Source: Candidatus Omnitrophota bacterium (lineage in GTDB: Bacteria > Omnitrophota > Gorgyraeia > Zapsychrales > JBDRMG01). From it: a stretch of DNA of 64,000 bases. The DNA is taken from positions 1,516-65,515 of the forward strand of contig JBDRMG010000008.1 in NCBI GenBank assembly GCA_043812495.1, written 5' to 3'. Of this stretch, positions 3,341 through 54,007 are shown piece by piece; positions within the stretch are counted from its first letter, which is position 1; the number at the start of each line of letters is the position of its first letter. Below the pieces are notes generated by a model. The model made no database searches. It had not been told where the DNA came from and was given only the letters and a program-made list of their open reading frames with translations. The translations under genes and the position numbers were made by a program.

Positions 3341-4747
3341 TTATTGATAAAAATTCAGAGCCGCTTCGCCAATCGTTTCCGAAAGCGTCGGATGCGGATA
3401 AATACTTGAGGCAATATCGGACACTTTGAGTCCCTGATCGACGGCGATGACGCCCTGCGCGATCAACTCGCCGGCGCCCACCCCGACAATACCCATTCCT
3501 AAGATTTTCTCTGATTGAGGATCCACAATAATTTTCGTTAAGCCGTCATTGCGCTTAAGCGTTGTGGCGCGTCCCGAGGCCATCCATGAGAATTTTTCTA
3601 TTTTAACTGGACGATTTTCTTTTTTAGCTTGAGTTTCAGATAAGCCGCAGGTCGCGATTTCGGGATCCGTAAAGACAACCGCCGGAATAGTTCGAATCCG
3701 TGCAACGTTGGTCTGACCGGCGATCACTTCGACGGCCATGCGCGCTTCAGCCGATGCTTTGTGGGCAAGCATGGGCGGACCTGTAACGTCACCAATCGCA
3801 AAAATAGAAGGGTCGTCGGTTTGGCATTTCTCGTTGGCTTTGATAAATCCGTCTTCATCCATTTGTGCTTGCGTGTTTTCTAATCCACAATGCTCCGTGT
3901 TGGGTTGCCGACCGACCGCCATCAATATTTTCTCGAACTCTTCTTCTGTCGTTTCTTTTTTCTCATTTTCCCATTTGGCACAAAGGCTGTTGTCTTTCTT
4001 ATGAATATCAATGAGTTTTGCTTGAAGATGTAGCGTTTTAAAAGTTTTATGTAAGCGTTTTTGTAAAACAGCCATCAAATCGGAATCTATACCGGCTAAC
4101 CATTGGCCGGTCATTTCTATAATCGTGACTTGCGATCCCAGGCGGGCATAAACGGTCCCGAGCTCAAGACCGATATAGCCGCCGCCTACAACCAGAAGGG
4201 TACGGGGAATATCATTGAGCTGCAAGGCTGATTGAGAATCAAGTAGGCAAGAAGAATCCCTTTTGATCCAAGAAGGCATGATTGGACGGGAACCTGTAGC
4301 GATAATGGCTTTGTCGAATGAAAGTTTTTCTTCGCACCCATCAGATTTTCTAATGAGAAGTGAAGACGAATCAAGAAAAGAGGCCTCCCCTTGGATGAGC
4401 GAGATACCCTGTTTTTTGATCAAATGATGAAGTCCGGCATATAATTTCTGAATGACGCTTTGGTTCCAGCTTCTGAGCTTTGCCCAATCGAGCTTTGCAG
4501 AGAATTCAATTCCAAAATCATTCGCCTCTTTAGATTCTGAAAGTAATTTGGCCACATGCAGTAAGGCCTTGGAGGGAATGCAGCCTTCATGAAGACAGAT
4601 GCCCCCGACCTTTTGGGCTTCAATCAGTGTGACATCGACTCCAAATTTGGCTGCTTGCAAAGCCGCTGTGACGCCGCCTGGGCCGCTTCCGATAATCGCA
4701 CAAGATGTTGTTTTTTTCTGCATCGTCTTGATGAATTTTTTAACCAC
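3341..4747 (-). CDS. lpdA: Dihydrolipoyl dehydrogenase-like class I pyridine nucleotide-disulfide oxidoreductase
   Basis: GxGxxG FAD motif (IIGSGPGG). Redox-active disulfide GGICLHEGCIPSK. NAD-binding GGGYIGLE. C-terminal dimerisation His-Pro region. Confidence 0.75.
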   Translation of the reverse strand: MVKKFIKTMQKKTTSCAIIGSGPGGVTAALQAAKFGVDVTLIEAQKVGGICLHEGCIPSKALLHVAKLLSESKEANDFGIEFSAKLDWAKLRSWNQSVIQKLYAGLHHLIKKQGISLIQGEASFLDSSSLLIRKSDGCEEKLSFDKAIIATGSRPIMPSWIKRDSSCLLDSQSALQLNDIPRTLLVVGGGYIGLELGTVYARLGSQVTIIEMTGQWLAGIDSDLMAVLQKRLHKTFKTLHLQAKLIDIHKKDNSLCAKWENEKKETTEEEFEKILMAVGRQPNTEHCGLENTQAQMDEDGFIKANEKCQTDDPSIFAIGDVTGPPMLAHKASAEARMAVEVIAGQTNVARIRTIPAVVFTDPEIATCGLSETQAKKENRPVKIEKFSWMASGRATTLKRNDGLTKIIVDPQSEKILGMGIVGVGAGELIAQGVIAVDQGLKVSDIASSIYPHPTLSETIGEAALNFYQ

Positions 4748-4876
4748 GAACTAAGTTTGAGAATATTGTATTACGCGTATGAACCAAGCGCAAGGATAAT
4801 TTGGCTATCCTGTTACATTTTTTATATTCAGCGTCTTGTTGAACCCCTTCGGGAAACATGATAGAATTTGAATACT

Positions 4877-5574
4877 ATGAAATCCATTGTCGTGACGCCC
4901 ACCTATAATGAACGGGACAATATCCAATCTTTCATTGAAGAAATTCTCAAAGTCAGCCCCGAATGCCATGTGTGCATTGTGGATGATCGATCTCCGGATG
5001 GAACAGGGCAGCTTGTTGAGGAGCTTTCCAAGAACGACGGACGAGTTCATGTGATTCACCGCACGGGAGAGCGCGGAAGAGGATTAGCGGATTTTGACGG
5101 TATCAGATTTGCGGTTGAGAACAATTTTGATTTTATTATTTCTATGGATGCCGATTTTTCTCATCAACCTTTTTTATTCCAAAGTTTCTAGAAGCGATCG
5201 AACATCATGACATTGTGATTGGTTCAAGGTTGATCCCCGGAGGAAAGATCGCGGGCCGAGGGCTTGGGCGCAATATCGTTACGCAGATGGCCAATCTTTA
5301 TATTCGCCTCATTCTCGGACTAAAAGCCAAAGATTGCACGTCAGGTTTTCGATGTTATAAAAAAGAAGTTTTGAATTCGATTCCTCTAAAGCATATGATT
5401 TCCAAAGGACCGTCCTCTTTAGAAGAGATACTCTACGCGTGCCAGAAAAAAGGTTTTAATATTTATGAAATTCCTATTACGTTTGTTGATCGAAGAAAAG
5501 GAAAATCCAAATTAGACCTTAAAGAACTCCTGAAAGTATTTTGGTCGATTCTAAGAATCCGATTTCAATCATGA
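4877..5574 (+). CDS. GT2 polyprenol-phosphate glycosyltransferase (Dpm1/Ppm1-like), interrupted by an apparent 1-nt frameshift in a T6 run (5170-5175)
   Basis: Frame 2 gives ...VVTPTYNE...VDDRSPDGT...DADFSHQP then a stop. Frame 1 continues with the canonical IPKFLEAIEHHDIVIGSR...GFRCY. One extra T in the homopolymer restores a single ORF of about 232 aa. Confidence 0.7.
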
Positions 5575-7301
5575 AGAAAAGCATGTCTTTCTCAAGCTTG
5601 AGTAACGGCTGGCTCATTGCCCTATTGGTTTTGGCAACATGCTTGGCTTACGGGCGATTTTTGGATAATCAATTTATTTGGGATGATTATCTTGTGCTTA
5701 AAAAGAATTCCTTTGTCCATTCTTGGAAGAATTTTCCTAAACTTTTCAGTCCCGAGTACATTACATCCCCCTCTCAGGTCTATGATGTTGGCAAGAAAGA
5801 TATCGGAGCCGGAGAACTGACCTACCGTCCCGTTTCGACGTTAACGTATTTTATTGAGTTTTCCTTTTGGCAGAAAAACCCCCTTGGGTATCATTTAACC
5901 AATCTTTTTCTACATATCTTAAATGTACTTTTAGTGTTTTGGTTCGTTCGTTTATTAAGCAAGGAACGAATGATTTCATTCGTCGCAGCCCTCATCTTTG
6001 CCCTTCATCCGGTTGGCTCAGAAGTTGTTTACAATATTTCTTTTCGGGAAGATCTCCTCGCATGCTTTTTTTGCCTGTTATCCTTTATTTTCTATATTCG
6101 CCTTGATTTGAAAGAAGGCCTTAAGAAAACGTTTTTCTATTCCCTATCTGTTCTGTTTTATTTTCTAGGCATTTTTTCTAAAGAAATGGCGATCACCTTG
6201 CCTATTCTACTTGTTGTTCACGATATCTATATTGCATTGCCGGGCGGGCGGACTCAATTATTCCAACGGATAAAATCGCGCTATTTCGGCTATATCCTGG
6301 TGACTTTATTTTATCTTTGGGTTTGGTTCTTTCCCATGGCGCGTCATCCGGAAGAAATGATTACTTATCCCTGCGAAAGCCTTTTTCTTAATATCCTAAC
6401 TATGATAAAGGTGTTTGCCAATTATGTATATTGGCTTTTCTTGCCCTTCACGGTTCACGCGACCATTCCTGATGGGGCCTATTTTGTGCGGACAGTTTTT
6501 GCATGGGATGTTCTTCTATCCTTTTTGGTCATCATTCTTTCTTTGATTTATGCGGTCCAAACATTCAAGACAAATCGTACGATTTGTTTCGGTTTGACAT
6601 GGTTTTTCATCGTACTTCTGCCGGTTTCCAATATTCTTCCTATCCAGAATATTATTGCGGCGAGGTATCTTTATCTTCCTATGGTCGGATTTTGTCTCGT
6701 GATCAGTTATTTCTTCTTCGGGATTCTCCTCAAGAGCCAATTTTTGGGAAGAAGTATTTATAAGACAACCATCAAGAGTTCATTGATAGGCCTTATGGTT
6801 TGTTATGTGTTGCTGACCTTTGCCAGAGGCTATACGTGGAGAAATGATATTACGCTATGGAAGGAAATTGTTCGTTTCTATCCTCAGAGTATTAGGGCTC
6901 ATAAGAGCTTGGCCTTTATCTATGCCAATGAGGGTTTTAAGGACAAAGCGATTCAAGAGTATTCTCAAGCCAAGAAATTGAACCCCAATGATGTTGAAGC
7001 CCGCTATGCATTAGGCCAGCTTTTTCTTTTTCAGGGAATCTTAGATAAGGCTCAAGAAGAGTTTCAGGCCGTTATTGAGCGTGATAAAAAAATGGACATT
7101 GCTTATAATAATTACTGCATGGCATTGTATTATAATCAAAGGCAGGATGAATCGATCACGTGTTTCCTCAAGATGATTGAGGAGCATCCGGGCTCTGCAA
7201 AGCCATATGAGAATCTTGGGATGATTTATGAAAAGATGGGTAAGGCCCAAGAAGCCCGAAAGATGCGGGATAAAGCCCGCCAGATAGAAGAGAATAATTG
7301 A
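5571..7301 (+). CDS. Polytopic membrane protein, GT-C/PMT-like, with C-terminal TPR repeats
   Basis: About 11 predicted TM helices, then TPR-like repeats (AHKSLAFIYANEGFKDKAIQEYSQAKKLNPND...). Follows the Dpm1-like GT2. Confidence 0.6.
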   Translation: MKKSMSFSSLSNGWLIALLVLATCLAYGRFLDNQFIWDDYLVLKKNSFVHSWKNFPKLFSPEYITSPSQVYDVGKKDIGAGELTYRPVSTLTYFIEFSFWQKNPLGYHLTNLFLHILNVLLVFWFVRLLSKERMISFVAALIFALHPVGSEVVYNISFREDLLACFFCLLSFIFYIRLDLKEGLKKTFFYSLSVLFYFLGIFSKEMAITLPILLVVHDIYIALPGGRTQLFQRIKSRYFGYILVTLFYLWVWFFPMARHPEEMITYPCESLFLNILTMIKVFANYVYWLFLPFTVHATIPDGAYFVRTVFAWDVLLSFLVIILSLIYAVQTFKTNRTICFGLTWFFIVLLPVSNILPIQNIIAARYLYLPMVGFCLVISYFFFGILLKSQFLGRSIYKTTIKSSLIGLMVCYVLLTFARGYTWRNDITLWKEIVRFYPQSIRAHKSLAFIYANEGFKDKAIQEYSQAKKLNPNDVEARYALGQLFLFQGILDKAQEEFQAVIERDKKMDIAYNNYCMALYYNQRQDESITCFLKMIEEHPGSAKPYENLGMIYEKMGKAQEARKMRDKARQIEENN

Positions 7302-7353
7302 TTTTGAGAATCGATTTACTTTTGAATTTTATGCGGAAGGAGAGATTTGCCTG

Positions 7354-7424
7354 CCTCATCCGCCAATTCTGCCAAAGGCAGAATTGGCGGATGGGTGAGG
7401 TCTCGCCCCGCCTTAGGCGGGGCG
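7354..7424. repeat. Two adjacent GC-rich hairpins between convergent genes (a 17 bp perfect palindrome ATCCGCCAATTCTGCC/GGCAGAATTGGCGGAT and CGCCCCGCC-ttag-GCGGGGCG)
   Basis: Seen directly. Neither hairpin has a canonical U-tract on either strand. Confidence 0.6.
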
Positions 7425-7443
7425 GAAACTCTTTAGAAAAAAA

Positions 7444-7527
7444 TGCCGAAGGTGGGACTCGAACCCACATGGCCGCGAAGCCACACGCCCCTGAAACGTG
7501 CGTGTCTACCAATTTCACCACTTCGGC
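7444..7527 (-). tRNA. tRNA-Leu (anticodon CAG), class II with long variable arm, CCA not encoded
   Basis: Manual fold of the reverse complement: acceptor GCCGAAG/CTTCGGC; D-arm GTG-AAATTGGTAGA-CAC; anticodon stem CACGT/GCGTG with loop TTCAGGG; variable arm of 16 nt; T-arm TGGG-TTCGAGT-CCCA; discriminator A. Confidence 0.85.
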
Positions 7528-7624
7528 TCGTCTTCGCAAAACAGCTTTAGCTCAGTATTTAAAAATTCCGTCTCAGTATACCCGCAAATTATTTTTCTGT
7601 CAATATGGCGTTCTGTCAAACGGA

Positions 7625-7652
7625 TTGCCATCAAATCACTTTATGATATAAT
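7625..7652 (+). promoter_or_regulatory. Sigma70-type promoter candidate (TTGCCA-16-TATAAT) for the AEC transporter gene
   Basis: Hexamers read directly, 12 nt upstream of the ATG at 7664. Confidence 0.45.
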
Positions 7653-7663
7653 ACGACCTAGCC

Positions 7664-8611
7664 ATGTTGCCTATTTCTTTTCAAACACTCTCGGCGGCTA
7701 TTCTGCAAATTCTTTTAATGGGCGCCTGCGGTTATATGCTGTTTAAAAAACGGCTCATCGATGAGGCGGGGTTGGATCTTCTGACGCGGCTTTTGATGAA
7801 TTTCTTCCTGCCGATCTTTATGTTTTATCAGCTGACCCAAAGGTTTCGGTTTTCCGTTTATCCGGATTGGTGGCTGTATCCGGTCTTGAGTTTTATCATT
7901 ACAGCGGTGGCCTTGGTGCTTAGCCGTTTGGTTCTTGCACTTAGCCAAAAAGTGAAATGCCCAAAGGAATTTATCAGCCTTTGTGTCTTCCAGAATTCCG
8001 GTTATATTCCTTTAATTTTAGTAGCGACTCTTTTTGAAGGACAACAGGCGGAAGATTTATTTGTCTATATTTTTCTATTTCTCATCGGCTTTAATCTGAC
8101 GATGTGGTCCCTGGGAACGTGGTTTGTCGCAAGTCAGAAAACGTCAAGATTTCAGATAAGAGAATTCTTTAATCCGCCTCTAATCGCCCTCTTGATCGCA
8201 TTTGGCTTGATTGCCTTAGGGTGGCAGCGTTTTGTGCCGCCGTTAATTCTGAAGCCCATGAAATTATTCAGTCAGTGTGTTTTTCCTCTGGCGATGATTA
8301 TGGTCGGAGGAAATCTGGGGCGCATACAAGTAAACGATATCCGCCCCAAAGAGATCATTCCGTTGGTGCTAACAAAATTGATCTTGCTTCCGCTTTGTGG
8401 CCTAGGAATAATTCTTCTTTTTCGTCTTCAGGGTCCCATGGCGTTTATTCTCATCCTGGAAACAGCCGTTCCGAGCGCGATTTCTTTGTCGATTATTTCC
8501 CGCCATTATCAAGTGGAGGAGTGCCTGATTAATCAGGGATTGCTGTTCACGCATTTAGCGAGCATTGTGACCATCCCTACGTTTCTCTCAATCTATAATT
8601 TGCTCCAATAA
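7664..8611 (+). CDS. AEC (auxin efflux carrier) family membrane transporter
   Basis: Ten-TM architecture. The N-terminal and C-terminal halves are typical of PF03547. Confidence 0.7.
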   Translation: MLPISFQTLSAAILQILLMGACGYMLFKKRLIDEAGLDLLTRLLMNFFLPIFMFYQLTQRFRFSVYPDWWLYPVLSFIITAVALVLSRLVLALSQKVKCPKEFISLCVFQNSGYIPLILVATLFEGQQAEDLFVYIFLFLIGFNLTMWSLGTWFVASQKTSRFQIREFFNPPLIALLIAFGLIALGWQRFVPPLILKPMKLFSQCVFPLAMIMVGGNLGRIQVNDIRPKEIIPLVLTKLILLPLCGLGIILLFRLQGPMAFILILETAVPSAISLSIISRHYQVEECLINQGLLFTHLASIVTIPTFLSIYNLLQ

Positions 8612-8613
8612 AT

Positions 8614-9075
8614 ATGGACCCAAAAAAAATAGCGACGAACAAAAAGGCCTTTCGTGATTATTTTTTTAGCGAAAAATGGGAGTGCGGCCTTGAACTCAAA
8701 GGAAGCGAGGTCAAATCTCTGCGGGCAAGTGAGGTGAGCTTTACCGATAGCTTTGCGCGCGTCGAACAGGGCCAGGTGATTCTTTACAATCTGCATATTG
8801 CTCCGTATCAACAGGGCAGTTATTTTAATCTGGAACCGACTCGACCGCGTCGGCTTCTTTTGCATAAAAAAGAAATCATGAGAATCGAAACTCATATGTC
8901 CCAAAAAGGACTGGCCCTGATTCCGACACGTATTTATTTCAACAGACGTGGCCTTGCCAAAGTGGAGCTGGCCTTGGGCCGCGGCAAGAAGCTTTTTGAC
9001 AAGCGGGAAGACATCAAGAAAAGAGATGTCGACCGCGAGATCAAACGCGCCGTACGGCATCAGCGCAAGCGTTAG
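8614..9075 (+). CDS. smpB: SsrA-binding protein SmpB
   Basis: Conserved SmpB core (NKKAFRDYF...GLELKGSEVKSLR...LYNLHIAPY...RPRRLLLHKKEI...RGLAKVELALGRGKKLFDKR). The tmRNA gene lies immediately downstream. Confidence 0.9.
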   Translation: MDPKKIATNKKAFRDYFFSEKWECGLELKGSEVKSLRASEVSFTDSFARVEQGQVILYNLHIAPYQQGSYFNLEPTRPRRLLLHKKEIMRIETHMSQKGLALIPTRIYFNRRGLAKVELALGRGKKLFDKREDIKKRDVDREIKRAVRHQRKR

Positions 9076-9189
9076 CCCCTCCAAAAGTATTTTTGCATAC
9101 CTGCCTTTCTTCGAGTATAATTACCATAGAAAATAAACTCCTATCCTGCTCTTTTCTATACGCTCAACGCTATACGCTTTACGCTAAGT

Positions 9190-9335
9190 TCGGGGGTGAC
9201 AAGGTCTCGACTCTGCTTCGCCCAAATGTTTTCACGTTGGGCTTCGCAGAGTCTTCACAGGCAATAATAGGCGAAGCAGCCCTACGAAGCTCCCAAACGA
9301 AAGTTTTGGAGCGAAGTGGGGTAAATATAGACTTT
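9190..9335 (+). repeat. Degenerate duplicate of the ssrA 5' end (GGGGGTGACAAGGTCTCGAC) fused to a copy of the ssrA 3'-flank hairpin element
   Basis: 9192-9212 matches the tmRNA 5' end (9354-9375) at about 20 of 23 positions. 9209-9330 aligns with 9754-9860 (CTTCGCCCAAATGTTTTC vs CTTCGCTCAAATGTTTC; CCCTACGAAGCTCCCAAACGAAAG vs GCTCTACGAAGCCAAACGCGAAGG). Confidence 0.65.
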
Positions 9336-9353
9336 TATTGTTCTTTAAAATTT

Positions 9354-9753
9354 GGGGGTGAAAAGGGTTCGACTTAGGTTCGACAGCGTATAAGTGGCAT
9401 GCGGAGGAAGCTTGGTAGGCCTCCTTAATCATCCAAGCACCAAATAAACGCAAAAGAAAACGCGTTATTACTAGCGAAAGCTAGCTCCATTGTTGAGCCT
9501 GTTTTCGCTGGCGAAACAGTCTCAGTTATTCGATAACTGAGCCCTCTTATCAGCAATGCCTGTGGGCTGATAAAAGGTCGCAAGCAGGCTGGTTTCGCCG
9601 GTTGCTTTCACTGGCGGAATAAGACTTAAGAAAGCTGGTCCTGACTACGTTTGTCTGTTTAGAAGGCCAGGATGAGATTCAAAAAATAGACTAAGCATGT
9701 AGAGGCTTATACACTGTAACCCAAGGACGCGAGTTCGATTCTCGCCACCTCCA
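9354..9753 (+). ncRNA. ssrA: tmRNA (ssrA)
   Basis: 5' GGGGGTGAAAAGGGTTCGAC and 3' ...GACTAAGCATGTAG...GGACGCGAGTTCGATTCTCGCCACCTCCA match the conserved tRNA-like ends of tmRNA (compare E. coli GGGGCUGAUUCUGGAUUCGAC ... GACUAAGCAUGUAG ... GGGUUCAACUCCCGCCAGCUCCA). Acceptor pairing GGGGGTG/CACCTCC. Immediately downstream of smpB. Confidence 0.85.
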
Positions 9754-9945
9754 TTCTTCTTCGCTCAAATGTTTCGTCTCCCTTCGGTCGACTGCACGTT
9801 TGAGCTTCGAAGAATAAATTCTGCCGAAGAAGAATGCTCTACGAAGCCAAACGCGAAGGACCCCGATGATATATCGGGGACGAAGCATTTTGGCGTAGTA
9901 GAGCACTATTCCTTTTCAATTCTTTCCATAAGACATAGTTACTTT

Positions 9946-10188
9946 ATGTTCATCGTCTACATCATCACAAGTTTAAAAGACCCTTCTAAACATTACGTTG
10001 GCTTTACGAAAGACTTAGATAGACGTCTTATAGCCCATAATGCTCGAAAATCACTCTTTTCTAGAAAGTACTCTCCCTGGAAGATCGAATCTTATATTAC
10101 CTTTACCGATGAGAGGAAAGCTATAGCATTTGAGAAGTACCTTAAGAAAGGCTCTGGCCACGCCTTCCTTACGAAACACCTTATCTAA
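9946..10188 (+). CDS. Small GIY-YIG nuclease superfamily protein (COG2827-like)
   Basis: MFIVYIITS...HYVGFTKDLDRRLIAHN...FTDERKAIAFEKYLK matches GIY-YIG plus the downstream conserved Arg/Glu. The longer ORF from 9769 overlaps the ssrA flank, so the start at 9946 is preferred. Confidence 0.65.
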   Translation: MFIVYIITSLKDPSKHYVGFTKDLDRRLIAHNARKSLFSRKYSPWKIESYITFTDERKAIAFEKYLKKGSGHAFLTKHLI

Positions 10189-10395
10189 TCTACATCGCTC
10201 AAACAATTTGATTTCTATAAGGTTACAGCAAATTAATTTTAAGAAAATACATTCCACTTCCCTCCCTCTTCGCAAAAAAATCACACCCAGATTCTTAATT
10301 TTCGATATATAATTGAAGGAACTTTTTAGAACTAATATTGGTCTAAATATATAGATATCAAATTAAAAGTCTTATTTCCAAAGGATCCTCAGAAT

Positions 10396-18497: not shown

Positions 18498-18686
18498 TTT
18501 CGGATATTATTCTACTTTGCATAAGCAATGAAAATGATGGTATATGTCCTTCTTCGTCCGCCATTGTTTCGTTGGCGGACTCCGAAGGATTCCTCCATAG
18601 CCTTGGCGAAGGAGAACTTCGTAGAATATTCTCGTTGGAGTAATTTTCCGAAGCCTATACCGTTGCTTGCTATTGGTAAGGCGAAG
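18498..18686 (+). repeat. Structured intergenic repeat family 'R', copy 1 (contains an internal partial tandem duplication)
   Basis: Shares TATTCTACTTTGCATAA..CTTCGTAGAATATTCTC..CCGAAGCCT.TACC..GGCGAAGGAGAATA with 52932-53050. Copy 1 has an extra unit of about 70 nt. Confidence 0.8.
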
Positions 18687-18735
18687 GAGAATAGGATAAG
18701 TTCAAGTAATCTATGCAGATCCATAAGGGGGTTTT

Positions 18736-19483: not shown

Positions 19484-19570
19484 TCAATGAGGCCTGCGCT
19501 TATGGATGCCGCGCCCGCCATTGATTCAGTGGCGGGCGGGGCAGAACATAAGTGCATGGCCGAATTGACC
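19484..19570 (-). repeat. Modular palindromic intergenic element, copy B (minus orientation; inner hairpin carries the CCCGCCCGCCA/TGGCGGGCG module)
   Basis: The reverse complement reads GGTCAATTCGGCCATGCACTTATG-ttc-[hairpin]-tc-CATAAGCGCAGGCCTCATTGA. Confidence 0.8.
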
Positions 19571-19617
19571 CAGCACTAATTTTGTAATCCTATTGACATG
19601 CAAAAATTAGTGCTGGG
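19569..19617 (+). promoter_or_regulatory. Perfect 15 bp inverted repeat CCCAGCACTAATTTT/AAAATTAGTGCTGGG whose 19 nt loop contains TTGACA; candidate operator/promoter for the MarC-family gene
   Basis: Read directly. A related half-site motif, CGCTAAATTTT-aga-AAAATTAGCG, lies inside element copy C (44503-44525). Confidence 0.5.
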
Positions 19618-19708
19618 ATAAAACAAATGCTATTATTATTTCCTTATTTACTTAAAAAATAATGATTAAAAAGCTAATGCATAAGACAAACGAAAGGATG
19701 AGATTACG

Positions 19709-26202: not shown

Positions 26203-26768
26203 ATTATTTTAAAGAGCTCATCGATTTATGTCAGCATATTACGATCAATGATCAGAAGGGGAGGCCCTTGTTGATCGAAAAGGCCTTTGACAGAACAGTC
26301 CAGATGATTATGGACCACAAAAATAAAGGCAAAGTTTTTTTGATAGGAAACGGCGGCAGCGCGGCCATTGCCAGCCACACCATGACGGATTTTATCCGTA
26401 ATGCGAAGATTCCGGCCATGGCTTTTAATGACGCCGCTCTTTTGACATGCATGTCCAATGATTATGGATACGAAAAGGTTTACGAAAAGCCCATTGAAGT
26501 TGTCGTCAAAAGAGGAGACGTGCTGATTGCGATCAGTAGCTCGGGAAAATCGAAAAATATTATCCGGGCCGTCAGAGCCGCACAGAAGAATAAGGCGCGC
26601 GTTATTACTCTTTCGGGGTTCAACCGGAACAACTATTTGAGCAAGCTCGGGGAAATCAACTTCTACGTTCCTTCCAGCTCTTACGGGTTCGTCGAGTCCA
26701 TACACTTTCTCATCTGCCACTGCATTGTTGATACTTTGATAGCGAAAAAGAAAAGAAAAAATGGATAA
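26199..26768 (+). CDS. gmhA: Phosphoheptose isomerase (SIS domain)
   Basis: LIGNGGSAAIASHTMTDF and AISSSGKSKNI SIS motifs. Confidence 0.8.
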   Translation: MNYFKELIDLCQHITINDQKGRPLLIEKAFDRTVQMIMDHKNKGKVFLIGNGGSAAIASHTMTDFIRNAKIPAMAFNDAALLTCMSNDYGYEKVYEKPIEVVVKRGDVLIAISSSGKSKNIIRAVRAAQKNKARVITLSGFNRNNYLSKLGEINFYVPSSSYGFVESIHFLICHCIVDTLIAKKKRKNG

Positions 26769-27828
26769 GTTCAGAATCGACAGCCATAAGCTCACGTATC
26801 ATGTCCAGCGCGTCCATGATTGGTTGAATGGAAAAAACATTTATCCGGTGTATATAGAAATCAGCCCTACGGGCGCGTGCAACCACCGCTGTATTTTCTG
26901 CGGTTTAGACTTTATGGAATACAAAGCCCGGTCGCTTGATACGGCCCTATTGAAAGAACGTTTAAAAGAATTGGGCGAACTTGGCGTCAAAAGCATCATG
27001 TACGCCGGCGAAGGTGAGCCTTTCTTGCATCGAGACATCGTCGAGATCATTCAGCATACGAAAAATTCCGGAATAGATGTCGCGGTCACAACCAACGGCG
27101 TTTTATTTTCAAAAGAAAAAGCCGAAAACTCACTTGGGTATATGGAATGGATTAAGATCGGCATCGATGCCGGAACTAAAGAAACCTACGCGAAAATTCA
27201 TCGATGCCGAGAACAAGACTTCGATCGCCTCATTGAAAATATGAAAGAGGCTGTCCGGATTAAACGCAAAAGCGGTTACTCTTGCGCGATCGGCGCTCAG
27301 GCTTTGCTTTTACCCGACAATCAAAAGGAGATGGTGGGTCTCGCCAAGCTTATCAAAGATATTGGATTAGACTATCTTGTCGTCAAACCCTATTCTCAGC
27401 ATCCGCAGAGCAAAACCAAACAATATAGTGAGATTAAATATGACGACTATGGCGGGCTCGAAGAACAATTATCTCAGCTTAAGTCGGACAAGTTTCAAGT
27501 GATCGTGCGTATCCATACCATGAGAAAATGGGATGATAAGAAAAAAGAATATGAATGCTGTCTCGCACTTCCGTTTTGGTCGTATATTGATGCGGGGGGA
27601 AATGTCTGGGGCTGCAGCGTATATTTAGGGGATGAACGCTTCTTTTACGGCAATATCAATGAGCAGTCTTTTAAAGAAATATGGGAATCACAAAAACGTG
27701 TTGATTCACTACGCTTTGTTCAAGAGAAGCTCAACGCCTCAACGTGCCGAGTGAATTGCCGCATGGATGAAGTGAATCGTTATTTGTGGGAGCTAAAAAA
27801 CCCTCCCGACCATGTGAATTTTATATAA
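26761..27828 (+). CDS. Radical SAM enzyme with C-terminal Cys-rich auxiliary-cluster (SPASM/twitch-like) domain; paralog of 34473-35771
   Basis: CNHRCIFC (Cx3Cx2C). C-terminal Cys pairs (ECCLALP...GCSVY...STCRVNCRMD). Shared terminal motif KNPPDHVNFI. Confidence 0.75.
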   Translation: MDKFRIDSHKLTYHVQRVHDWLNGKNIYPVYIEISPTGACNHRCIFCGLDFMEYKARSLDTALLKERLKELGELGVKSIMYAGEGEPFLHRDIVEIIQHTKNSGIDVAVTTNGVLFSKEKAENSLGYMEWIKIGIDAGTKETYAKIHRCREQDFDRLIENMKEAVRIKRKSGYSCAIGAQALLLPDNQKEMVGLAKLIKDIGLDYLVVKPYSQHPQSKTKQYSEIKYDDYGGLEEQLSQLKSDKFQVIVRIHTMRKWDDKKKEYECCLALPFWSYIDAGGNVWGCSVYLGDERFFYGNINEQSFKEIWESQKRVDSLRFVQEKLNASTCRVNCRMDEVNRYLWELKNPPDHVNFI

Positions 27829-27844
27829 GAGTAAATGAAAATTG

Positions 27845-27992
27845 TTTTGGTTCTGGTGAGTTGGTAACGTTGGAGTCTTGTTGTGGTTATGGTTTTAGGT
27901 GTCGTTTAGAACAGAAATAATGATTTTAACCAAAACAACAACTAAAACGACAACGAAACACCAACGTTACCGATACCAAAAACGAAAACAAC
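27845..27992. repeat. Long imperfect palindrome: a GT-rich arm of about 63 nt and an AC-rich arm of about 65 nt around a 20 nt centre
   Basis: The arms are about 75% reverse-complementary and share a GGTAACGTTGG/CCAACGTTACC core. Strongly strand-asymmetric in composition. Confidence 0.7.
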
Positions 27993-28024
27993 TTTATAGG
28001 TTTTTGGAAAACCCTTGAATTTGA

Positions 28025-28543
28025 TTGGAGGAAAAAATGAAGAGAGCTGTCATTATTACAGCCACAAATTTTCAGGATGAGGAATTTACCTATCCGTATT
28101 ATCGATTACTGGAAGAGGGTTTTGCGGTTGATGTGGCCACGCCGGATAAAGCGCCGGTTTGCGGCAAATACGGCGTCCCGGCCCGACCCAACAAAGATAC
28201 AAAAGAATTGAAGGTCTCCGATTACGATCTTGTCATTCTTCCCGGCGGATTTGAAGCTCCGGATCGCCTGCGTATTCGTCCGGAAGTTTTGGCCTTCGTC
28301 AAAGAGATGTTTGAGACCAAAAAGATTGTGGCGGCCATCTGCCACGGACCCTGGATTTGTATTTCCGCGGGAATCCTCAAAGGGAAGAAGGCAACGGGGT
28401 ATATGTCCATCGCCGATGATATCAAAAATGCCGGCGCGACTTATATGGAAGAGGATGTTGTGATTGACGGAAATCTGATTACATCTCCGCACTATCGCAA
28501 TAACGGCGATTTTATGAAAGCCGTTCTCAAAACCATCAAATAA
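28025..28543 (+). CDS. DJ-1/PfpI-family protein (class I glutamine amidotransferase-like fold)
   Basis: Nucleophile elbow AAICHGPW. Confidence 0.8.
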   Translation: MEEKMKRAVIITATNFQDEEFTYPYYRLLEEGFAVDVATPDKAPVCGKYGVPARPNKDTKELKVSDYDLVILPGGFEAPDRLRIRPEVLAFVKEMFETKKIVAAICHGPWICISAGILKGKKATGYMSIADDIKNAGATYMEEDVVIDGNLITSPHYRNNGDFMKAVLKTIK

Positions 28544-40176: not shown

Positions 40177-40692
40177 ATGGGAATTGTTCGATATATATAC
40201 TCACCTTTCTTCGGCTTGGCTGTGAGCATTATTGTTCAGGTGCTGATCCTCCGCTTCAACAGCCGTTTTAGCCTCTTGAAATCCATGGTGATTGGGTTTT
40301 TTTGTGGGTTTGCCGGTCTTATGATAATCGACATCGGATATAATGTATCCACCGCTTCAAGAGGAGAGCTCTTATTAAACCTGAATCTCTTTATTTATTG
40401 TCTGTGGGCCAATGTTTATTTTCATTTTGTGAATATGGGGGAAACGGCGCGGCGCATAAGAATTTTAAGAGAGCTTTATGAAGCTTCAGGCGGCCTGACT
40501 TTGGATGAGCTTCTTGAACGCTATAATGCCAAGGGGATCATTGAAAAAAGAATCGAACGATTAGTGCACAATGATCAGATTATTTTTAAGGAAGGGAAAT
40601 ATTATATTAAGAATCGATTATTATGGCTGGTCGCAAAGATGATTATTTCAATGAAGTTCATCTTTCTTGGTAAAAGAAGCGAATTTGATTAG
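40177..40692 (+). CDS. Small membrane protein (4 TM plus a C-terminal soluble domain), hypothetical
   Basis: ORF only. Architecture resembles the preceding gene. Confidence 0.5.
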   Translation: MGIVRYIYSPFFGLAVSIIVQVLILRFNSRFSLLKSMVIGFFCGFAGLMIIDIGYNVSTASRGELLLNLNLFIYCLWANVYFHFVNMGETARRIRILRELYEASGGLTLDELLERYNAKGIIEKRIERLVHNDQIIFKEGKYYIKNRLLWLVAKMIISMKFIFLGKRSEFD

Positions 40693-40705
40693 GCAATAAA
40701 AGAAA

Positions 40706-40765
40706 TCATTTGTCAGCAATAAATTTCAACCAAATCTGCCGGGTTCTCGGTCCGTCAAACTCCAT
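40706..40765 (-). pseudogene. Diverged duplicate of the last 19 codons of yjbQ (encodes MEFDGPRTRQIWLKFIADK* versus the true MEFDGPRTREVWLKFISD*)
   Basis: About 85% nucleotide identity to 40842-40895. The two copies are separated by the 73 nt hairpin element. Confidence 0.7.
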
Positions 40766-40838
40766 TCTTCTTCGCTCTCATGTTTTCACATGAGAGCTCC
40801 GAAGCAATTTCAAACTTTAGAGCGAAGCAGAACCTTTT
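40766..40838. repeat. Hairpin element of the TTCTTCTTCGCTC family, inserted between the true and duplicated yjbQ 3' ends
   Basis: TTCTTCTTCGCTCT...AGAGCGAAGCAGAA outer stem. Inner hairpin GCTCTCATG-ttttca-CATGAGAGC. The 18-mer CTCCATTCTTCTTCGCTC (40760-40777) is identical to 9749-9766 at the ssrA 3' end. Confidence 0.7.
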
Positions 40839-41234
40839 TCAATCTGAAATAAATTTTAACCAAACTTCTCTGGTTCTCGGTCCGTCAAACTCCATCAAAA
40901 AGATCCCTTGCCATGTTCCCAACTGCAGATTTCCGTTCTCCACGATAAAAGTCTGAGAAAAACCCATGAGGCTGCCCTTGATATGGGCATCGGCGTTATC
41001 TTCCGCATGATTAAATCCGAAATCTTGCGGCACGGTTTTCTTCAAGAAATAATGGATGTCCCGCTTGACATCGGGATCCGCGTTCTCATTGACCGTTAAG
41101 GCTGCCGTGGTATGAGGAGAGTAGACGACTAAAATCCCTGAGTCGCATTTTTCCTTGCGAAGATAGTCTTTGATGTCAGGTGTTAAGTCAATAATTTGCT
41201 CTCTTTGGGTTGTTGGAACGTTGAACTTATACAT
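40839..41234 (-). CDS. YjbQ/UPF0047-family protein
   Basis: Conserved UPF0047 segments (GILVVYSPHTTAALTVNEN...DAHIKGSLMG...LGTWQGIFLMEFDGPR). Confidence 0.8.
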   Translation of the reverse strand: MYKFNVPTTQREQIIDLTPDIKDYLRKEKCDSGILVVYSPHTTAALTVNENADPDVKRDIHYFLKKTVPQDFGFNHAEDNADAHIKGSLMGFSQTFIVENGNLQLGTWQGIFLMEFDGPRTREVWLKFISD

Positions 41235-44339: not shown

Positions 44340-44405
44340 GTTTTTATTGATTACAATGGATCGGAAGGATAATAAGAGAATTATCATCATTTAATTTGCT
44401 TACTT

Positions 44406-44559
44406 CCCCTCGTCCGCCATCGATTTTAGCAGTGGACTCGGGGTCAATTCGGCCATGCACTTATGTTTCCGTCAATTCGATAGAATCGAATTGACGAGAC
44501 CTCGCTAAATTTTAGAAAATTAGCGGACATTATCATTCCATAAGTGCAGGCCTCATGGA
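44406..44559 (+). repeat. Modular palindromic intergenic element, copy C (longest; inner hairpin GTCAATTCGAT/ATCGAATTGAC plus inserted CGCTAAATTTT/AAAATTAGCG module)
   Basis: 5' arm 44442-44465. 3' arm 44538-44559 (CATAAGTGCAGGCCTCATgGA). Ends 14 nt before the cusB-like start. Confidence 0.85.
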
Positions 44560-44573
44560 AAGGAGTATGAACC

Positions 44574-45839: not shown

Positions 45840-45880
45840 TTAATAAAGAAAAGGAAATATTATAGCTGCATTTGCTTAAT

Positions 45881-45982
45881 CCCCGCCCGCCATTGATTCA
45901 GTGGCGGGCGGGGTCAATTCGGCCATGCACTTATGTTCTCCGCCATAATTCGTGGCGGATCCATAAGCGCAGGCCTCATTGA
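45881..45982 (+). repeat. Modular palindromic intergenic element, copy D (GC hairpin CCCCGCCCGCCA-ttgattcag-TGGCGGGCGGGG plus arms)
   Basis: 5' arm 45912-45935. 3' arm 45961-45982. Ends 14 nt before the ATG at 45997. Confidence 0.85.
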
Positions 45983-51018: not shown

Positions 51019-52947
51019 ATGACGGGTAAAACAGTCCATAAACTCCGGTTCAAAAATTTCAAGATTCGCCAAAAGCTCATCCTGATCCTGTTGGTCATTT
51101 CTTTGATTCCGCTTTTGGCCGTCAGCATCTATAATTTCTACTACGCAAAATCAGAACTTGAAAAGAAGGCCATTGACCGACTGAAGGCCGTAACCCTGGC
51201 GCGGGAAGCCCATATCAATCACTTCATCCAATTGCGGCAGGAGCAAGCCAAGCAAATTGCCGGCGGTTTTTTGCCTCGTCAGTTAAGAGAATCCGGCCTC
51301 AATGATCCGGAAATTGTTCGCGGTATCCAGGCTGATATTAATGCCGCTTTCTACGATTTAAATCTGGAACCCTCCGGATATTACAAAAATATCGATCAGA
51401 AGACAGACATTGAAATCATCGGCATATGGGATGTTCTCGGGACGATCATCGCCAATACCAACAGAGACCTGATCGGGAAAAAAATGCCCATTGAATATAT
51501 GCAGAATGTCTATAAACAGGGGACATTTTTCGGAGGGCTTGAGAAGGATCCTCTGACCGGAAAGAATTTCTTAATTATCTTAGAACTGATCCGCAATTGG
51601 AGAACAAATGAAATCGTGGGGGCTGTTTCATTAAAGATCAGAGCCAAGACGCTTAATGAAATCACAACCGCCGGAGAAGGCTTAGGCCAGACCGGCGAAA
51701 GCTATATTGTCGATAAGCATTACCGTATGATCACGCCGTCGCGTTTTGCGGATAATGCAATTCTCAAGCTTAGCGTTAAAACCGAAGGGACCCGGGCCTG
51801 CTTTCGGCAAACCAAAGCACCCACCCTCTACAAGAATTATCGGGATACCTTAGTCTTGGGCGTCCAAAGATATCTGCCGGATGAGGATTGGTGTCTTGTA
51901 ACGGAAATTAATGCCAACGAGGCCTTTGCGACGACAGAGGCCCTGCGTAACCGGACGCTCGTGATCGGAGGGCTTTTTCTTTTTGTTATTTTATTCTTGA
52001 CCTATAAAGCCACAGAGTCTTTTGTCCAGCCTATTATCAAACTGCGCAATGCCTCGAGTCAGGTGGCCCAGGGCGATTATGATGTTGTGCTTCATGAAGA
52101 TAGCCAGGATGAAATCGGAGAGCTCTCTAAAGTGTTCAATGAAATGGCCAAAAATCTAACCGCTTTCAAGTCGGAATTGGAAGAAAAAAACAAAGAGCTT
52201 TTTAAGAGCCTTGCGGTATCCACTCAACAGAAGAAGGAATTAAAGAAAGTCAACCAGGAGCTGGATAGTTTCGTTTATACGGCCAGTCATGATCTTCGCG
52301 CACCTTTGCGCGGCATTGCTTCCTTCGCCACTTTCTTAGAAGAAGATTACAAGAACAAACTTGACGATGAAGGGAAAGGCTATATTGACGAAATTCGAAA
52401 AGGCGCGACCAAAATGAACGCCCTCATCGAGGACTTGCTGTCCTTGTCCCGTATTTCCCGCATCAAGAATCCTTACGAAGATGTGCCGATCAGGCCATTG
52501 ATTGATTCCGTCTTGGAGCGCATCAAAGTCGATATCCAAAAGGAAAAAGTCCGCTTGATCATTGCGGAGAATTTGCCGACCGTTTACTGCGACCGCATTA
52601 AGATGGCCGAGGTGTTCTTGAATCTCATTAACAATGCGATCAAATTTTCCTCAAAAAACAACAAAGACCATCCTCAGGTGGAAATTGGCTATATGGCTGA
52701 GGATGACCATCATAAATTTTTCGTAAAAGACAACGGTATCGGGATTGATCCCAAATACCATGAACAAATATTCGGTATCTTTAAACGCTTACATACGGAC
52801 AAGGAATATGAAGGAACGGGAGCGGGTTTAAGCATTATTAAACGCGTAATCGATGATCACCACGGCAAAATTTGGATCGAATCGAAACTCGGACAGGGCG
52901 CCGCGTTCTTTTTTACGATCCCCAAGAATTTATTCTACTTTGCATAA
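51019..52947 (+). CDS. Sensor histidine kinase with periplasmic Cache-like domain, HAMP, HisKA and HATPase_c
   Basis: Two TM helices flank a periplasmic domain of about 270 aa. H-box SHDLRAPL. N, G1 and G2 boxes. Confidence 0.85.
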   Translation: MTGKTVHKLRFKNFKIRQKLILILLVISLIPLLAVSIYNFYYAKSELEKKAIDRLKAVTLAREAHINHFIQLRQEQAKQIAGGFLPRQLRESGLNDPEIVRGIQADINAAFYDLNLEPSGYYKNIDQKTDIEIIGIWDVLGTIIANTNRDLIGKKMPIEYMQNVYKQGTFFGGLEKDPLTGKNFLIILELIRNWRTNEIVGAVSLKIRAKTLNEITTAGEGLGQTGESYIVDKHYRMITPSRFADNAILKLSVKTEGTRACFRQTKAPTLYKNYRDTLVLGVQRYLPDEDWCLVTEINANEAFATTEALRNRTLVIGGLFLFVILFLTYKATESFVQPIIKLRNASSQVAQGDYDVVLHEDSQDEIGELSKVFNEMAKNLTAFKSELEEKNKELFKSLAVSTQQKKELKKVNQELDSFVYTASHDLRAPLRGIASFATFLEEDYKNKLDDEGKGYIDEIRKGATKMNALIEDLLSLSRISRIKNPYEDVPIRPLIDSVLERIKVDIQKEKVRLIIAENLPTVYCDRIKMAEVFLNLINNAIKFSSKNNKDHPQVEIGYMAEDDHHKFFVKDNGIGIDPKYHEQIFGIFKRLHTDKEYEGTGAGLSIIKRVIDDHHGKIWIESKLGQGAAFFFTIPKNLFYFA

Positions 52948-53050
52948 CCAATGGAAATAATAGTATCTGCTTCGTAGAATATTCTCCTCGGAATAATTCT
53001 CCGAAGCCTGTACCATTATGTTCCATTAGTAAGGCGAAGGAGAATAAAGG
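52932..53050 (+). repeat. Structured intergenic repeat family 'R', copy 2
   Basis: Aligns with 18498-18686 apart from a deletion of about 70 nt. The first 16 nt overlap the last codons and stop of the kinase gene. Confidence 0.8.
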
Positions 53051-53960: not shown

Positions 53961-54007
53961 ATTTTACAAGACTTTAAAGAAGAAATAGTTAATTCTTATT
54001 TGCTGTA

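Follow-up and report, generated by a model that had tools for sequence, protein, structure and literature searches.

A dispersed hairpin-doublet repeat at the tmRNA gene and at other gene ends of an Omnitrophota bacterium

Introduction

Why should an intact tmRNA gene (ssrA) be preceded by a copy of its own first nucleotides, and lie between two segments that fold into similar hairpins? The question is raised by a locus of a Candidatus Omnitrophota bacterium, contained in a 64-kb stretch of DNA that was analysed as a whole (hereafter, the window). A first-pass annotation regarded the short upstream copy as the scar of an ssrA gene that had lost its interior, and proposed that integration, excision or tandem duplication had taken place there. 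Here, we examine the locus together with the other occurrences of the same hairpins, in the window and in related sources.

Results and discussion

The ssrA locus

The ssrA gene is intact and in one piece (9354-9753, forward strand), as indicated by ARAGORN and by Rfam RF00023 (170.5 bits, full length 1-374), and its probable tag is AKENALLLAKASSIVEPVFAGETVSVIR, coded at 9450-9536. The ORF upstream is smpB (8614-9075, forward strand), whose product is 100% identical to the SmpB of an Omnitrophota MAG at NCBI (P0001), and the order tRNA-Leu, Mem_trans, smpB, ssrA represents a conserved synteny. A sigma-70-like promoter (TTGCAT-17-TATAAT, 10/12 match) is located at 9092-9121 on the forward strand. 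It is probably the native ssrA promoter, and about 230 nt now separate it from the mature 5' end downstream: in locus L112, TTTGCAT...TATACT is found directly after smpB, in the same position as in the window, and in L015 and L084 TATAAT is found about 40 nt upstream of the tmRNA.

The 5' stub (9186-9211, forward strand) is composed of 6 nt of leader and of tmRNA nt 1-20. The first-pass annotation had placed a copy of the tmRNA 5' end at 9192-9212, and this was confirmed for the 20-mer GGGGGTGACAAGGTCTCGAC at 9192-9211. The segment 9186-9220 matches the tmRNA 5' end (9348-9382) at 27/35 positions, with a local alignment score of 19 compared with a mean of 8.4 (sd 1.5) for dinucleotide shuffles (z=7.2), a score reached by none of 1000 shuffles. 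The stub retains G1-G7, GG and TCGAC of the tmRNA 5' end, and its variant GGTCTCGAC is the form present in the functional tmRNAs of the relatives L081 and L084. The right-hand copy (9326-9373, forward strand) consists of the leader, ending in GTTCTTTAAAATTT, and of tmRNA nt 1-20, and runs without a break into the functional gene. Part of this leader, the motif GTTCTTTAAAA(A)TTT, is also conserved upstream of the tmRNA in L015, L084 and L109. A two-piece (permuted) tmRNA was rejected, because the permuted model scored 16 bits, below its gathering threshold of 47. A second ssrA gene was rejected as well, given a single standard full-length tmRNA and a stub of only 20 nt; the stub is not a decayed second ssrA.

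After the copy of tmRNA nt 20 comes a hairpin doublet, E1 (9212-9325, forward strand), and directly after the tmRNA discriminator base comes another, E2 (9754-9904, forward strand), both recognized by covariance-model matches. E1 is made up of a module at 9207-9255 (+, 64.8 bits) and an inverted module at 9276-9325 (-, 33.6 bits); its predicted RNA fold has an energy of -51.3 kcal/mol (z=-5.1), and the insert has no ORF. In E2, the first module (9750-9818, +, 53.9 bits) has a loop insert of about 20 nt, and the inverted one (9833-9907, -, 32.9 bits) a nested hairpin. No terminator-like site was found in E1 or E2. The earlier observation that the stretch following the stub (9209-9330) resembles the ssrA 3' flank also holds: 9206-9231 matches 9749-9774 at 85%, and the gapped alignment of 9206-9300 with 9749-9853 scores 24, compared with 11.2 for shuffles (sd 1.7, z=7.4, 0/1000). 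The long-range hairpins described for the two flanks are present as well, CTGCTTCGCC (9213-9222) pairing with GGCGAAGCAG (9270-9279) at 10/10 positions with 47 nt between them in E1, and CATTCTTCTTCG (9752-9763) with CGAAGAAGAATG (9825-9836) at 12/12 positions with 61 nt between them in E2. The actual repeat modules are the shorter, local hairpins of both flanks.

Both doublets have orthologues in L109, that of E1 at the same tmRNA position and that of E2 with the same loop insert. Each of them is nearer to its L109 counterpart than to the other, although a rough tmRNA tree does not place the window and L109 as sisters. E1 and E2 may thus be anciently retained, and hence have a function. E1 is polymorphic between lineages, being missing in L081, L084, L028, L004 and L112; a degenerate module follows the tmRNA 3' end in L004. 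Comparison with related genomes, which the first-pass annotation had suggested, revealed the 5' duplicate, or any similarity between upstream and downstream flanks, in none of the 41 testable tmRNA loci of relatives (z≤2.3); the closest SmpB among the smpB-ssrA loci of relatives is 75% identical. The small GIY-YIG gene that had been pointed out downstream of ssrA is a real ORF next to E2 (9946-10188, forward strand, 80 aa; PF01541, E=9e-14), but is not generally associated with the element. By tblastn, a homologue is found downstream of the tmRNA in L052 only and none near other arrays, so that the gene was discarded as a general mobilizer or partner.

A family of hairpin doublets

The module of the family is a hairpin of about 50 nt. 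Its outer stem is variable and is separated from the inner stem, CYCNAA/TTNGRG, by a symmetric internal loop, CTTCG/CTTCG; the loop closed by the inner stem is TGTTTTCACG. Two modules in inverted orientation form the usual unit, a doublet of 105-160 nt with the constant termini TTCTNCTTCG...CGAAGNAGA, which recur at independent junctions; doublet sizes range overall from 66 to 160 nt. This '+-' doublet is the dominant form of the arrays and is identical on both strands, so that the orientation of a module with respect to the adjacent RNA gene is uninformative.

In the window, nhmmer and the covariance model detected five arrays with about 11 modules, all of them intergenic. They include, besides E1 and E2, a third copy, E3, at 40.7 kb, which shares an 18/18 match, E4 (52929-53048), between a histidine kinase and a response regulator gene, and E5 (18543-18695), an intergenic array of three modules (+ - -); E4 and E5 have no flanking repeat. 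An exact-pattern scan found the family in 29 metagenome contigs, and the covariance model found 91 modules in 36 related sources. Thus, ssrA is indeed bracketed by two related elements, as originally proposed, but these belong to a dispersed family rather than to a flank specific to ssrA. The same model gave only six weak matches in 80 other Omnitrophota smpB loci. Most smpB/ssrA loci of the phylum essentially lack the family, so that tmRNA and tRNA do not need it in order to mature.

The stems covary, both sides changing in 10 of the 18 pairs, and no shuffle out of 500 equalled the observed score; in the stem alignment, 86.5% of the cells are paired, compared with 28-50% for slid partners. 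The core sequence is almost invariant over many contigs, and one doublet is nested within the loop of another module. No Rfam family corresponded to the hairpin element, either at gathering or at E≤10, and our literature searches, on Omnitrophota repeats and on small elements duplicating the ends of tRNA or tmRNA genes, gave no description of it. The hairpin doublets are a lineage-specific dispersed repeat of an undescribed family in Omnitrophota, REPIN- or MITE-like in form.

The arrays show a marked preference for the ends of stable-RNA genes. Of the 34 non-redundant arrays, ten are found at 25 nt or less from the end of a tRNA or tmRNA gene, where 1.1 would be expected, and the arrays of L092 and L095 abut the 16S 3' end. 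Modules begin at the 16S 3' end and, for tRNA and tmRNA, at the discriminator base or the CCA, and they end at +1 of tRNA-Leu; at about 13 loci, the end of the element and that of the mature RNA meet with single-nucleotide precision. Such an exact abutment could point instead to a host function in RNA processing or RNA stability. Many copies, among them E3, E4, E5 and those of about 20 metagenome arrays, have ordinary protein-coding genes as neighbours.

Direct repeats of gene ends

Direct repeats of the adjacent gene end flank six independent arrays (z=5.9-26). The repeated ends are the tmRNA 5' end in the window and in L109, a tRNA-Leu 5' end, a tRNA-Arg 3' end, a tRNA-Glu 3' end and the last 19 codons of yjbQ. 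In L109, the leader and tmRNA nt 1-20 are repeated at 36/37 positions around the E1 orthologue, which is inserted after the same GAC|T; in L089, tRNA-Leu nt 1-20 are repeated at 20/20; in L100 and L102, which are separate assemblies, the tRNA-Glu repeat is an identical 15/15; and L090 carries a tandem arrangement in which three repeats alternate with two doublets. The tRNA-Arg and tRNA-Glu repeats span the T-arm to the 3' end. The lengths of the flanking repeats are 13-15, 15, 20, 27-35, 37 and about 57 nt, and to our knowledge no characterized transposase chemistry explains a spread from 13 to about 57 nt. Since about 28 of the 34 arrays have no flanking repeat, duplication is not obligatory for insertion.

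The longest repeat is that at yjbQ (UPF0047; 40839-41234, reverse strand). A displaced yjbQ end (40695-40765, reverse strand; z=17.8), comprising the last ~19 codons, MEFDGPRTRQIWLKFIADK, and the stop, lies at a distance of 13 nt from the stop codon of a convergent ORF (40177-40692). It is followed by the short doublet E3 (40766-40831, forward strand), with a module at 40761-40810 (+, 60 bits) and a weak inverted module at 40791-40836 (-), and then by the present 3' end of the gene (40839-40896), which ends in MEFDGPRTREVWLKFISD and the stop and represents the other copy of the duplication. All the differences between the two copies are synonymous or conservative (P~1e-4 for random substitutions), and the C-termini from both are within the natural variation of YjbQ. 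In relatives, yjbQ is followed by just 9-42 nt.

The sequences duplicated at E1 and E3 are single-copy in relatives. The diverged repeats at these two sites could in principle come from a strain-chimeric assembly of a single MAG; the layout of a doublet between two copies of a gene end recurs in independent assemblies.

Because gene-end repeats flank six independent arrays, the best interpretation of the stub is a target duplication that arose on insertion of a doublet into ssrA behind nt 20. We consider it probable, at roughly 60%, that the feature at ssrA is a dispersed doublet of mobile type with a target duplication. The upstream copy would have stayed with the native promoter and become the stub, while the downstream copy is the one that runs on into the intact gene.

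Among the Pfam matches listed for the 53 ORFs of the window, for 78 ORFs near arrays (≤1.5 kb) and for 10 adjacent ORFs, there were only housekeeping genes and no transposase, RAYT or integrase. These scans covered genome fragments, namely the 64-kb window and the flanks of the arrays, and Y1_Tnp was not among the families listed, the top 25 for each batch scan.

Alternative explanations

The idea of an ssrA gene with its interior deleted corresponds to a tandem duplication of leader, ssrA and flank element, followed by loss of the upstream ssrA from nt 21 to its 3' end, which would leave stub and E1 ahead of ssrA and E2. The layout at ssrA is formally as this predicts: E1 follows the stub as E2 follows the tmRNA 3' end, CTCGAC|TCTGCTTCG resembles CTCCAT|TCTTCTTCG, and the right-hand repeat includes leader sequence. 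However, this is not the most economical account, because the same order of stub, element and gene is found at tRNA-Leu, tRNA-Arg, tRNA-Glu and a protein gene, and at tRNA-Leu (L089), tRNA-Glu (L100/L102) and yjbQ (E3) there is no element on the far side, so that each site would need an extra deletion. Moreover, E1 and E2 are nearer to their L109 counterparts, with which E2 shares its specific 20-nt loop insert; the duplication would therefore be ancient, yet the L109 repeats are still 36/37 identical. We consider this explanation rather improbable, if still conceivable for the ssrA locus taken alone. As for the suggestion of past events at ssrA, a DNA rearrangement is supported, and a classical island integration is unlikely, since the 5' end is duplicated, the insert is about 115 nt and no integrase was seen in the window or near arrays. 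An integration or excision scar, with the repeats as attL/attR cores and the hairpins as remains of island ends, would suit the standing of tRNA and tmRNA genes as classical integration sites (for ssrA, see PMC3146451), the extent of the tRNA-Arg and tRNA-Glu repeats, which resemble T-loop att sites, and an insert of about 880 nt at the L109 tmRNA 3' end, bounded by a 13-nt repeat. What is duplicated at ssrA, however, is the 5' end with its leader, and random decay of islands would not yield inserts of 105-160 nt that end, at one independent site after another, in identical, precise termini. In addition, integrase genes were seen neither in the window nor near arrays, most arrays have no repeats, and one target is a protein C-terminus. 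A scar of this kind appears very improbable.

The modules might otherwise be host-functional RNA elements, under selection for processing, protection or stability, with the repeats arising as by-products of local duplication or gene conversion. The exact coincidence of modules with stable-RNA ends, their enrichment there, the nearly invariant core with covarying stems, and the persistence of E1 and E2 at orthologous places in diverged lineages would all agree with such a role. Nevertheless, the many copies beside ordinary protein genes, the nesting of one copy in another and the precise flanking target repeats, which are an insertion signature, argue against it, as does the near absence of the family from most Omnitrophota smpB/ssrA loci, and we regard it as unlikely. 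It should be noted that the mobile and the host-functional readings can be compatible, as REP-type elements can be both.

Comparison with known systems

REP sequences, and the REPINs in which REP doublets form hairpins, are mobilized by RAYT transposases, of the Y1/HUH type, whose gene typically lies between such repeats (PMC3116915, PMC3337134). Like them, the present elements are short imperfect palindromes, extragenic and highly repeated, with a unit in which two inverted copies can fold into a single long hairpin; within a lineage the copies are conserved, and some may be retained at orthologous sites. Unlike them, they have a hairpin foot YCTN-CTTCG instead of the GTAG-type head of REP, are strongly tied to the exact ends of tRNA, tmRNA and 16S, and show at some copies gene-end duplications of 13-57 nt, of which there is no mention in the REPIN papers compared; no RAYT was among the matches listed here, which come from partial genomes. 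Bacterial MITEs, such as Correia elements and Rickettsia palindromic elements (reviewed in PMC10969869), are likewise non-coding, dispersed and shorter than 200 nt, with terminal inverted repeats and, in some copies, flanking direct repeats; the doublets, at 66-160 nt, are well below the ~500 bp taken as the upper size of a MITE. Their target duplications are, however, short and fixed for each family, whereas here they range from none to about 57 nt; furthermore, the genome fragments analysed showed no insertion sequence sharing these ends that might be the parent, and the interior consists of two conserved, covarying hairpins.

A parallel for the repeats is the "insertion with long target duplication" of restriction-modification gene units (PMC2853133), which also have no mobility gene and are flanked by long, variable direct repeats; the repeated sequence occurs just once in genomes without the insert and often overlaps a gene 3' end. 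Repeats above the 30 bp that define such events are found at E1 (~35 nt), L109 (37 nt) and E3 (~57 nt). The inserts differ, being kilobase gene cassettes there and non-coding doublets of 66-160 nt with defined termini here, and the targets here include both 5' and 3' ends of RNA genes. For one element with very different target-duplication lengths there is a precedent in IS1549/IS1634, whose insertion gives long direct repeats of 8-514 bp, without a mechanistic model (PMC2266710); these are, however, autonomous elements of 1.5-2 kb with a DDE transposase, and neither such a gene nor matching ends were seen here. Finally, islands at tRNA and tmRNA genes also supply a copy of the gene end that restores the RNA gene, leaving the displaced end as a short direct repeat, and also form tandem arrays, as the doublets do in L090. 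They replace the 3' part of the gene, whereas E1 duplicates the 5' end and leader; they are kilobases long and encode a tyrosine integrase, whereas here non-coding hairpins of 105-160 nt lie between the repeats, and a protein C-terminus is among the targets. Repeats drawn from the 3' portion of an RNA gene, as in an att scar, are found only at tRNA-Arg and tRNA-Glu and not at ssrA, where both in the window and in L109 they comprise leader and nt 1-20.

A possible mechanism

If the doublets are mobile, an enzyme recognizing the hairpin ends may move them in trans, with insertion usually occurring without duplication. When a doublet landed within a gene end, the only survivors would be those in which the end was re-copied, possibly by template switching, gap repair or widely spaced nicks. 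Template switching has no clear support, as the microhomology between repeats and doublet at the junctions is at most 1-2 nt (by eye). Reverse transcription primed by tRNA, suggested by junctions at the RNA 3' end, was put aside because most junctions do not have the mature-tRNA CCA. Such alleles could then spread between relatives through homologous recombination, which would account for the resemblance of the repeat copies of the window to diverged functional alleles. We put forward this combination of trans mobilization, re-copied gene ends and spread by homologous recombination as a tentative scheme, for which the odds are below even. At the locus itself, transcription of ssrA would now start at the old promoter and pass through the stub and E1, and RNase P would trim the transcript.

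Concluding remarks

The family is now defined by a covariance model, by its termini and by about 90 instances, and marks the ends of tRNA, tmRNA and 16S. The doublets might represent an undescribed miniature mobile element that homes to stable-RNA termini and gene 3' ends, supplies a replacement terminus and moves between lineages by recombination through that terminus, although in this specific form the proposal is doubtful. On this reading they would be a non-coding counterpart, of about 100 nt, of the islands that integrate into tRNA genes, and the CTTCG/CTTCG-loop hairpin would be the recognition site of the enzyme involved. If the doublets are mobile, the origin of insertions whose target duplications are long and variable could be studied in them on a small scale. 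If they are host RNA signals, they would point to an unknown step of stable-RNA maturation in Omnitrophota. For genome annotation, gene-end stubs beside these hairpins should not be labelled as pseudogenes, as a second ssrA or as att sites of islands. What appeared as an oddity of one ssrA gene thus becomes a phenomenon that is general and open to testing, in a phylum of which little is known.

Results

The ssrA locus

In the window, which derives from an Omnitrophota MAG, smpB (8614-9075) is followed, after a 278-nt spacer, by a full-length, one-piece tmRNA gene (ssrA) at 9354-9753 (ARAGORN; Rfam RF00023, 170.5 bits, model positions 1-374). The deduced SmpB is identical to the protein of an Omnitrophota MAG at NCBI, and the next-nearest SmpB is 75% identical. 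The first-pass annotation had described a copy of the tmRNA 5' end in the spacer, a following sequence similar to the ssrA 3' flank, a long-range hairpin in each flank and a small GIY-YIG gene downstream, and all of these were borne out. The copy (hereafter the stub, GGGGGTGACAAGGTCTCGAC) occupies 9192-9211, its end differing by one base from that first reported. Positions 9186-9220 and 9348-9382, the latter comprising 6 nt of leader and the 5' end of tmRNA, agree at 27 of 35 sites, with a local score of 19 compared with 8.4 (SD 1.5) for dinucleotide shuffles (z = 7.2); alignment of the stretch following the stub to the tmRNA 3' flank gives a score of 24 compared with 11.2 (SD 1.7; z = 7.4). 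In both comparisons the real alignment exceeded all 1000 shuffles. The two hairpins pair over 10/10 and 12/12 bp, and the GIY-YIG gene is a real ORF (9946-10188, PF01541); a small GIY-YIG gene also lies 3' of the tmRNA gene in contig L052 (2113-2349; 36% identity to that in the 9946-10210 region).

Since a strong promoter-like site (TTGCAT-17-TATAAT, 9092-9121) lies directly 3' of smpB, and contig L112 has TTTGCAT...TATACT at the matching place ahead of an uninterrupted ssrA, the stub is, as judged from these motifs, the original place of the ssrA 5' end with its promoter still attached. The functional ssrA starts with the second copy, which is preceded by a conserved leader motif (GTTCTTTAAAATTT) also present in relatives. 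The stub has kept all the conserved positions of the tmRNA 5' end, and its variant GGTCTCGAC is the form found in functional tmRNAs of relatives. A search for a terminator-like site in E1, the array upstream of ssrA, found none. The ssrA transcript would thus start at the old promoter, include the stub and E1, and then be trimmed at the true 5' end. Between promoter and stub, the old leader contains a 14-nt tandem repeat (9156-9183; CTATACGCTCAACG / CTATACGCTTTACG). It should also be noted that ARAGORN probably proposed the wrong tag peptide (EPSYQQCLW...); a tag like those of relatives, AKENALLLAKASSIVEPVFAGETVSVIR followed by a stop, is encoded in frame 9450-9536.

A dispersed family of hairpin doublets

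The flank element had been regarded as part of the ssrA locus, but it belongs instead to a dispersed family. Comparison of the ssrA flanks with the window (blastn) gave an 18/18 match at 40760, and a small HMM revealed more copies at 52.9 kb and 18.5 kb. An exact pattern of the shared core matched 29 stretches in public metagenome contigs; in this sample, drawn by a pattern fitted to three copies, a 32-nt core (CTTCG-CYCNAA-TGTTTTCACG-TTNGRG-CTTCG) is almost invariant, and the surrounding outer stem is variable in sequence with complementarity always kept. Among 26 distinct copies, 10 of the 18 base pairs have changed on both sides and 86.5% of stem cells pair, compared with 28-50% for slid partners; the observed covariation was reached by 0/500 shuffles. 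A covariance model built from these copies identified 91 modules in the window and 35 contigs and, with filters off, about 11 credible modules in five window arrays, E1, E2 (downstream of ssrA), E3 (at yjbQ), E4 (52.9 kb) and E5 (18.5 kb). The same model gave only six weak matches in 80 other Omnitrophota smpB loci (558 kb), and Rfam contained no family matching the modules, even at E<=10. Just after the GIY-YIG stop codon, 10189-10210 (TCTACATCGCTCAAACAATTTG) resembles a module left arm, with a score under the model threshold.

Each module (about 50 nt) forms a hairpin interrupted by a 3x3 internal loop. The most frequent arrangement is a pair of inverted modules ('+-'), or doublet, of 105-160 nt, whose termini are inverted repeats (TTCTNCTTCG...CGAAGNAGA) and whose fold is far stronger than that of shuffled sequence (z = -2.7 to -5.9).

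The window also contains a second, unrelated family of intergenic palindromic repeats (2717-2874, 19484-19666, 44369-44560, 45853-45982 and 53975-54036), made of nested hairpins around GGCCATGCACTTATG...CCATAAGTGCAGGCCTCAT, with four of the five copies ending right at a start codon. A 158-nt imperfect palindrome (27838-27995), with a GT-rich and an AC-rich arm, lies between ORFs 26761-27828 and 28025-28543.

Location of the doublets and duplicated gene ends

The left end of the doublet directly follows the discriminator base or CCA of tRNA-Arg, -Phe, -Ser, -Tyr, -Ala and -Glu, and also stands directly 3' of 16S rRNA and of tmRNA; E2 (9754-9904) begins with the base following the tmRNA discriminator. 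In three unrelated contigs, the right end adjoins tRNA-Leu at position +1. A tRNA or tmRNA end is found within 25 nt of ten of the 34 non-redundant arrays, compared with 1.1 for random placement in the same loci; the window arrays other than those at ssrA lie between protein-coding genes. On the opposite strand at 7528-7560, directly upstream of the window's tRNA-Leu 5' end, TCGTCTTCGCAAAACAGCTTT resembles a decayed left arm of a module, at the site of the intact doublets of L104, L089 and L111.

Direct repeats (13-57 nt) of the adjacent gene end flank six independent arrays, and about 28 arrays are without them. At E1 the repeat consists of leader plus tmRNA nt 1-20. In L109 it takes in 17 nt of leader as well as tmRNA nt 1-20 (36/37 identical); this element is inserted after the same GAC|T as E1, and aligns with E1 well past the family core. 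The repeat is tRNA-Leu nt 1-20 in L089 (20/20), the last 13 nt of tRNA-Arg in L090/L113, where repeats and doublets alternate in tandem (S-D-S-D-S), and the 3'-terminal 13 nt of tRNA-Glu followed by TT in L100/L102 (15/15, identical in two separate assemblies). At E3, on the minus strand, the last ~19 codons and the stop of yjbQ are repeated around a short doublet (40695-40765 and 40839-40896; z = 17.8). Between the end of the displaced yjbQ copy and the stop of the convergent gene there are 13 nt, a compact spacing like that after yjbQ in relatives (gap of 9-42 nt). The two E3 copies differ at two synonymous codons and by three conservative replacements, so mild a difference having P~1e-4 under random substitution, and both C-termini lie inside natural YjbQ variation.

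Given the features retained by the stub and the mildness of the E3 differences, the window's repeat copies look like diverged functional alleles rather than a live copy paired with a decaying one. Unlike these diverged pairs, the copies elsewhere are identical. The window comes from one MAG assembly, and its diverged pairs could be strain-chimeric, although independent assemblies (L100/L102, L090/L113 and L109) show the same repeat-doublet-repeat layout.

Signs of movement

In L102 (5075-5262; the same in L100), the module directly 3' of tRNA-Glu has a doublet nested in its loop. In a rough neighbour-joining tree of tmRNAs, E1 is missing from the genes nearest the window (L004, L028) and from that nearest L109 (L081). 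L109 also has an E2 orthologue, which shares the unusual 20-nt loop insert of E2 and is separated from the tmRNA by a later insertion of ~880 nt (7279-8170) flanked by a 13-nt repeat of the tmRNA 3' end. This is a separate small insertion, likewise duplicating the tmRNA 3' end; it carries a frameshifted NYN-domain ORF, and its bounding repeat is CCCGGCACCTCCA. L004 has a degenerate module 3' of the tmRNA; in addition, ~790 nt (4450-5236) with two small ORFs are inserted between its smpB and ssrA, the TATAAT-like site after smpB being retained. Pfam scans of the genome fragments, covering the window and the surroundings of the arrays, gave no transposase, RAYT or integrase among the 25 top-ranking families of each batch.

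Discussion

The doublet is structured, conserved and dispersed, and has fixed termini; it is enriched at RNA gene ends, polymorphic in its insertion, sometimes nested, and accompanied by target repeats. We regard it, with a probability of roughly 0.6, as a mobile-type element with target duplication. The first-pass interpretation of the locus is upheld in part. Tandem duplication of ssrA followed by internal deletion, as then proposed, fits the locus taken alone, but would need extra deletions at tRNA-Leu, tRNA-Glu and yjbQ, all three of which lack a second flanking element, and would have to be ancient, yet the L109 repeats are identical at 36 of 37 positions; we consider it unlikely. An att scar left by an island is more improbable still, because the duplicated end is the 5' end, the insert is only ~115 nt with constant termini, and none of the matches listed for the window and the surroundings of the arrays is an integrase. 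A host element for RNA processing or stability is a serious partial alternative, compatible with mobility, in view of the base-exact abutment on mature ends and the retention of E1 and E2 at orthologous sites; as it leaves the copies between protein genes, the nesting, the patchy distribution and the target repeats unexplained, we rate it as rather unlikely.

Among known systems, REP doublets (REPINs, PMC3116915) and MITEs (PMC10969869) are closest in form. However, the matches listed for the window and the array surroundings include neither the RAYT that defines REPINs nor a parent IS, and MITEs have a fixed short target duplication that is absent here. Insertion with long target duplication, which the flanking repeats match, has been described for restriction-modification cassettes (PMC2853133), and their variable length recalls IS1549/IS1634, with repeats of 8-514 bp and a mechanism left without explanation (PMC2266710). 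The gene-restoring logic parallels that of islands integrating at tRNA and tmRNA genes, although the doublets are ~100 nt, without integrase, and at both 5' and 3' ends. In the literature on Omnitrophota repeats and on small elements duplicating tRNA or tmRNA ends, we found no description of this family.

The mobile-type doublet is thus best described as a REPIN/MITE-like family whose long target duplications regenerate gene ends at stable-RNA genes. A specific chain of events can be proposed only tentatively. The doublets would be non-autonomous and moved by a hairpin-recognizing enzyme, as in REPIN/RAYT-type or MITE-type systems, normally without duplication; an insertion inside a gene end would survive only when a further copy of that end is made on its other side, by template switching in repair synthesis or from widely spaced nicks. 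The re-copied alleles would then pass among relatives by homologous recombination through the gene, so that two different alleles of a gene end would come to stand side by side.
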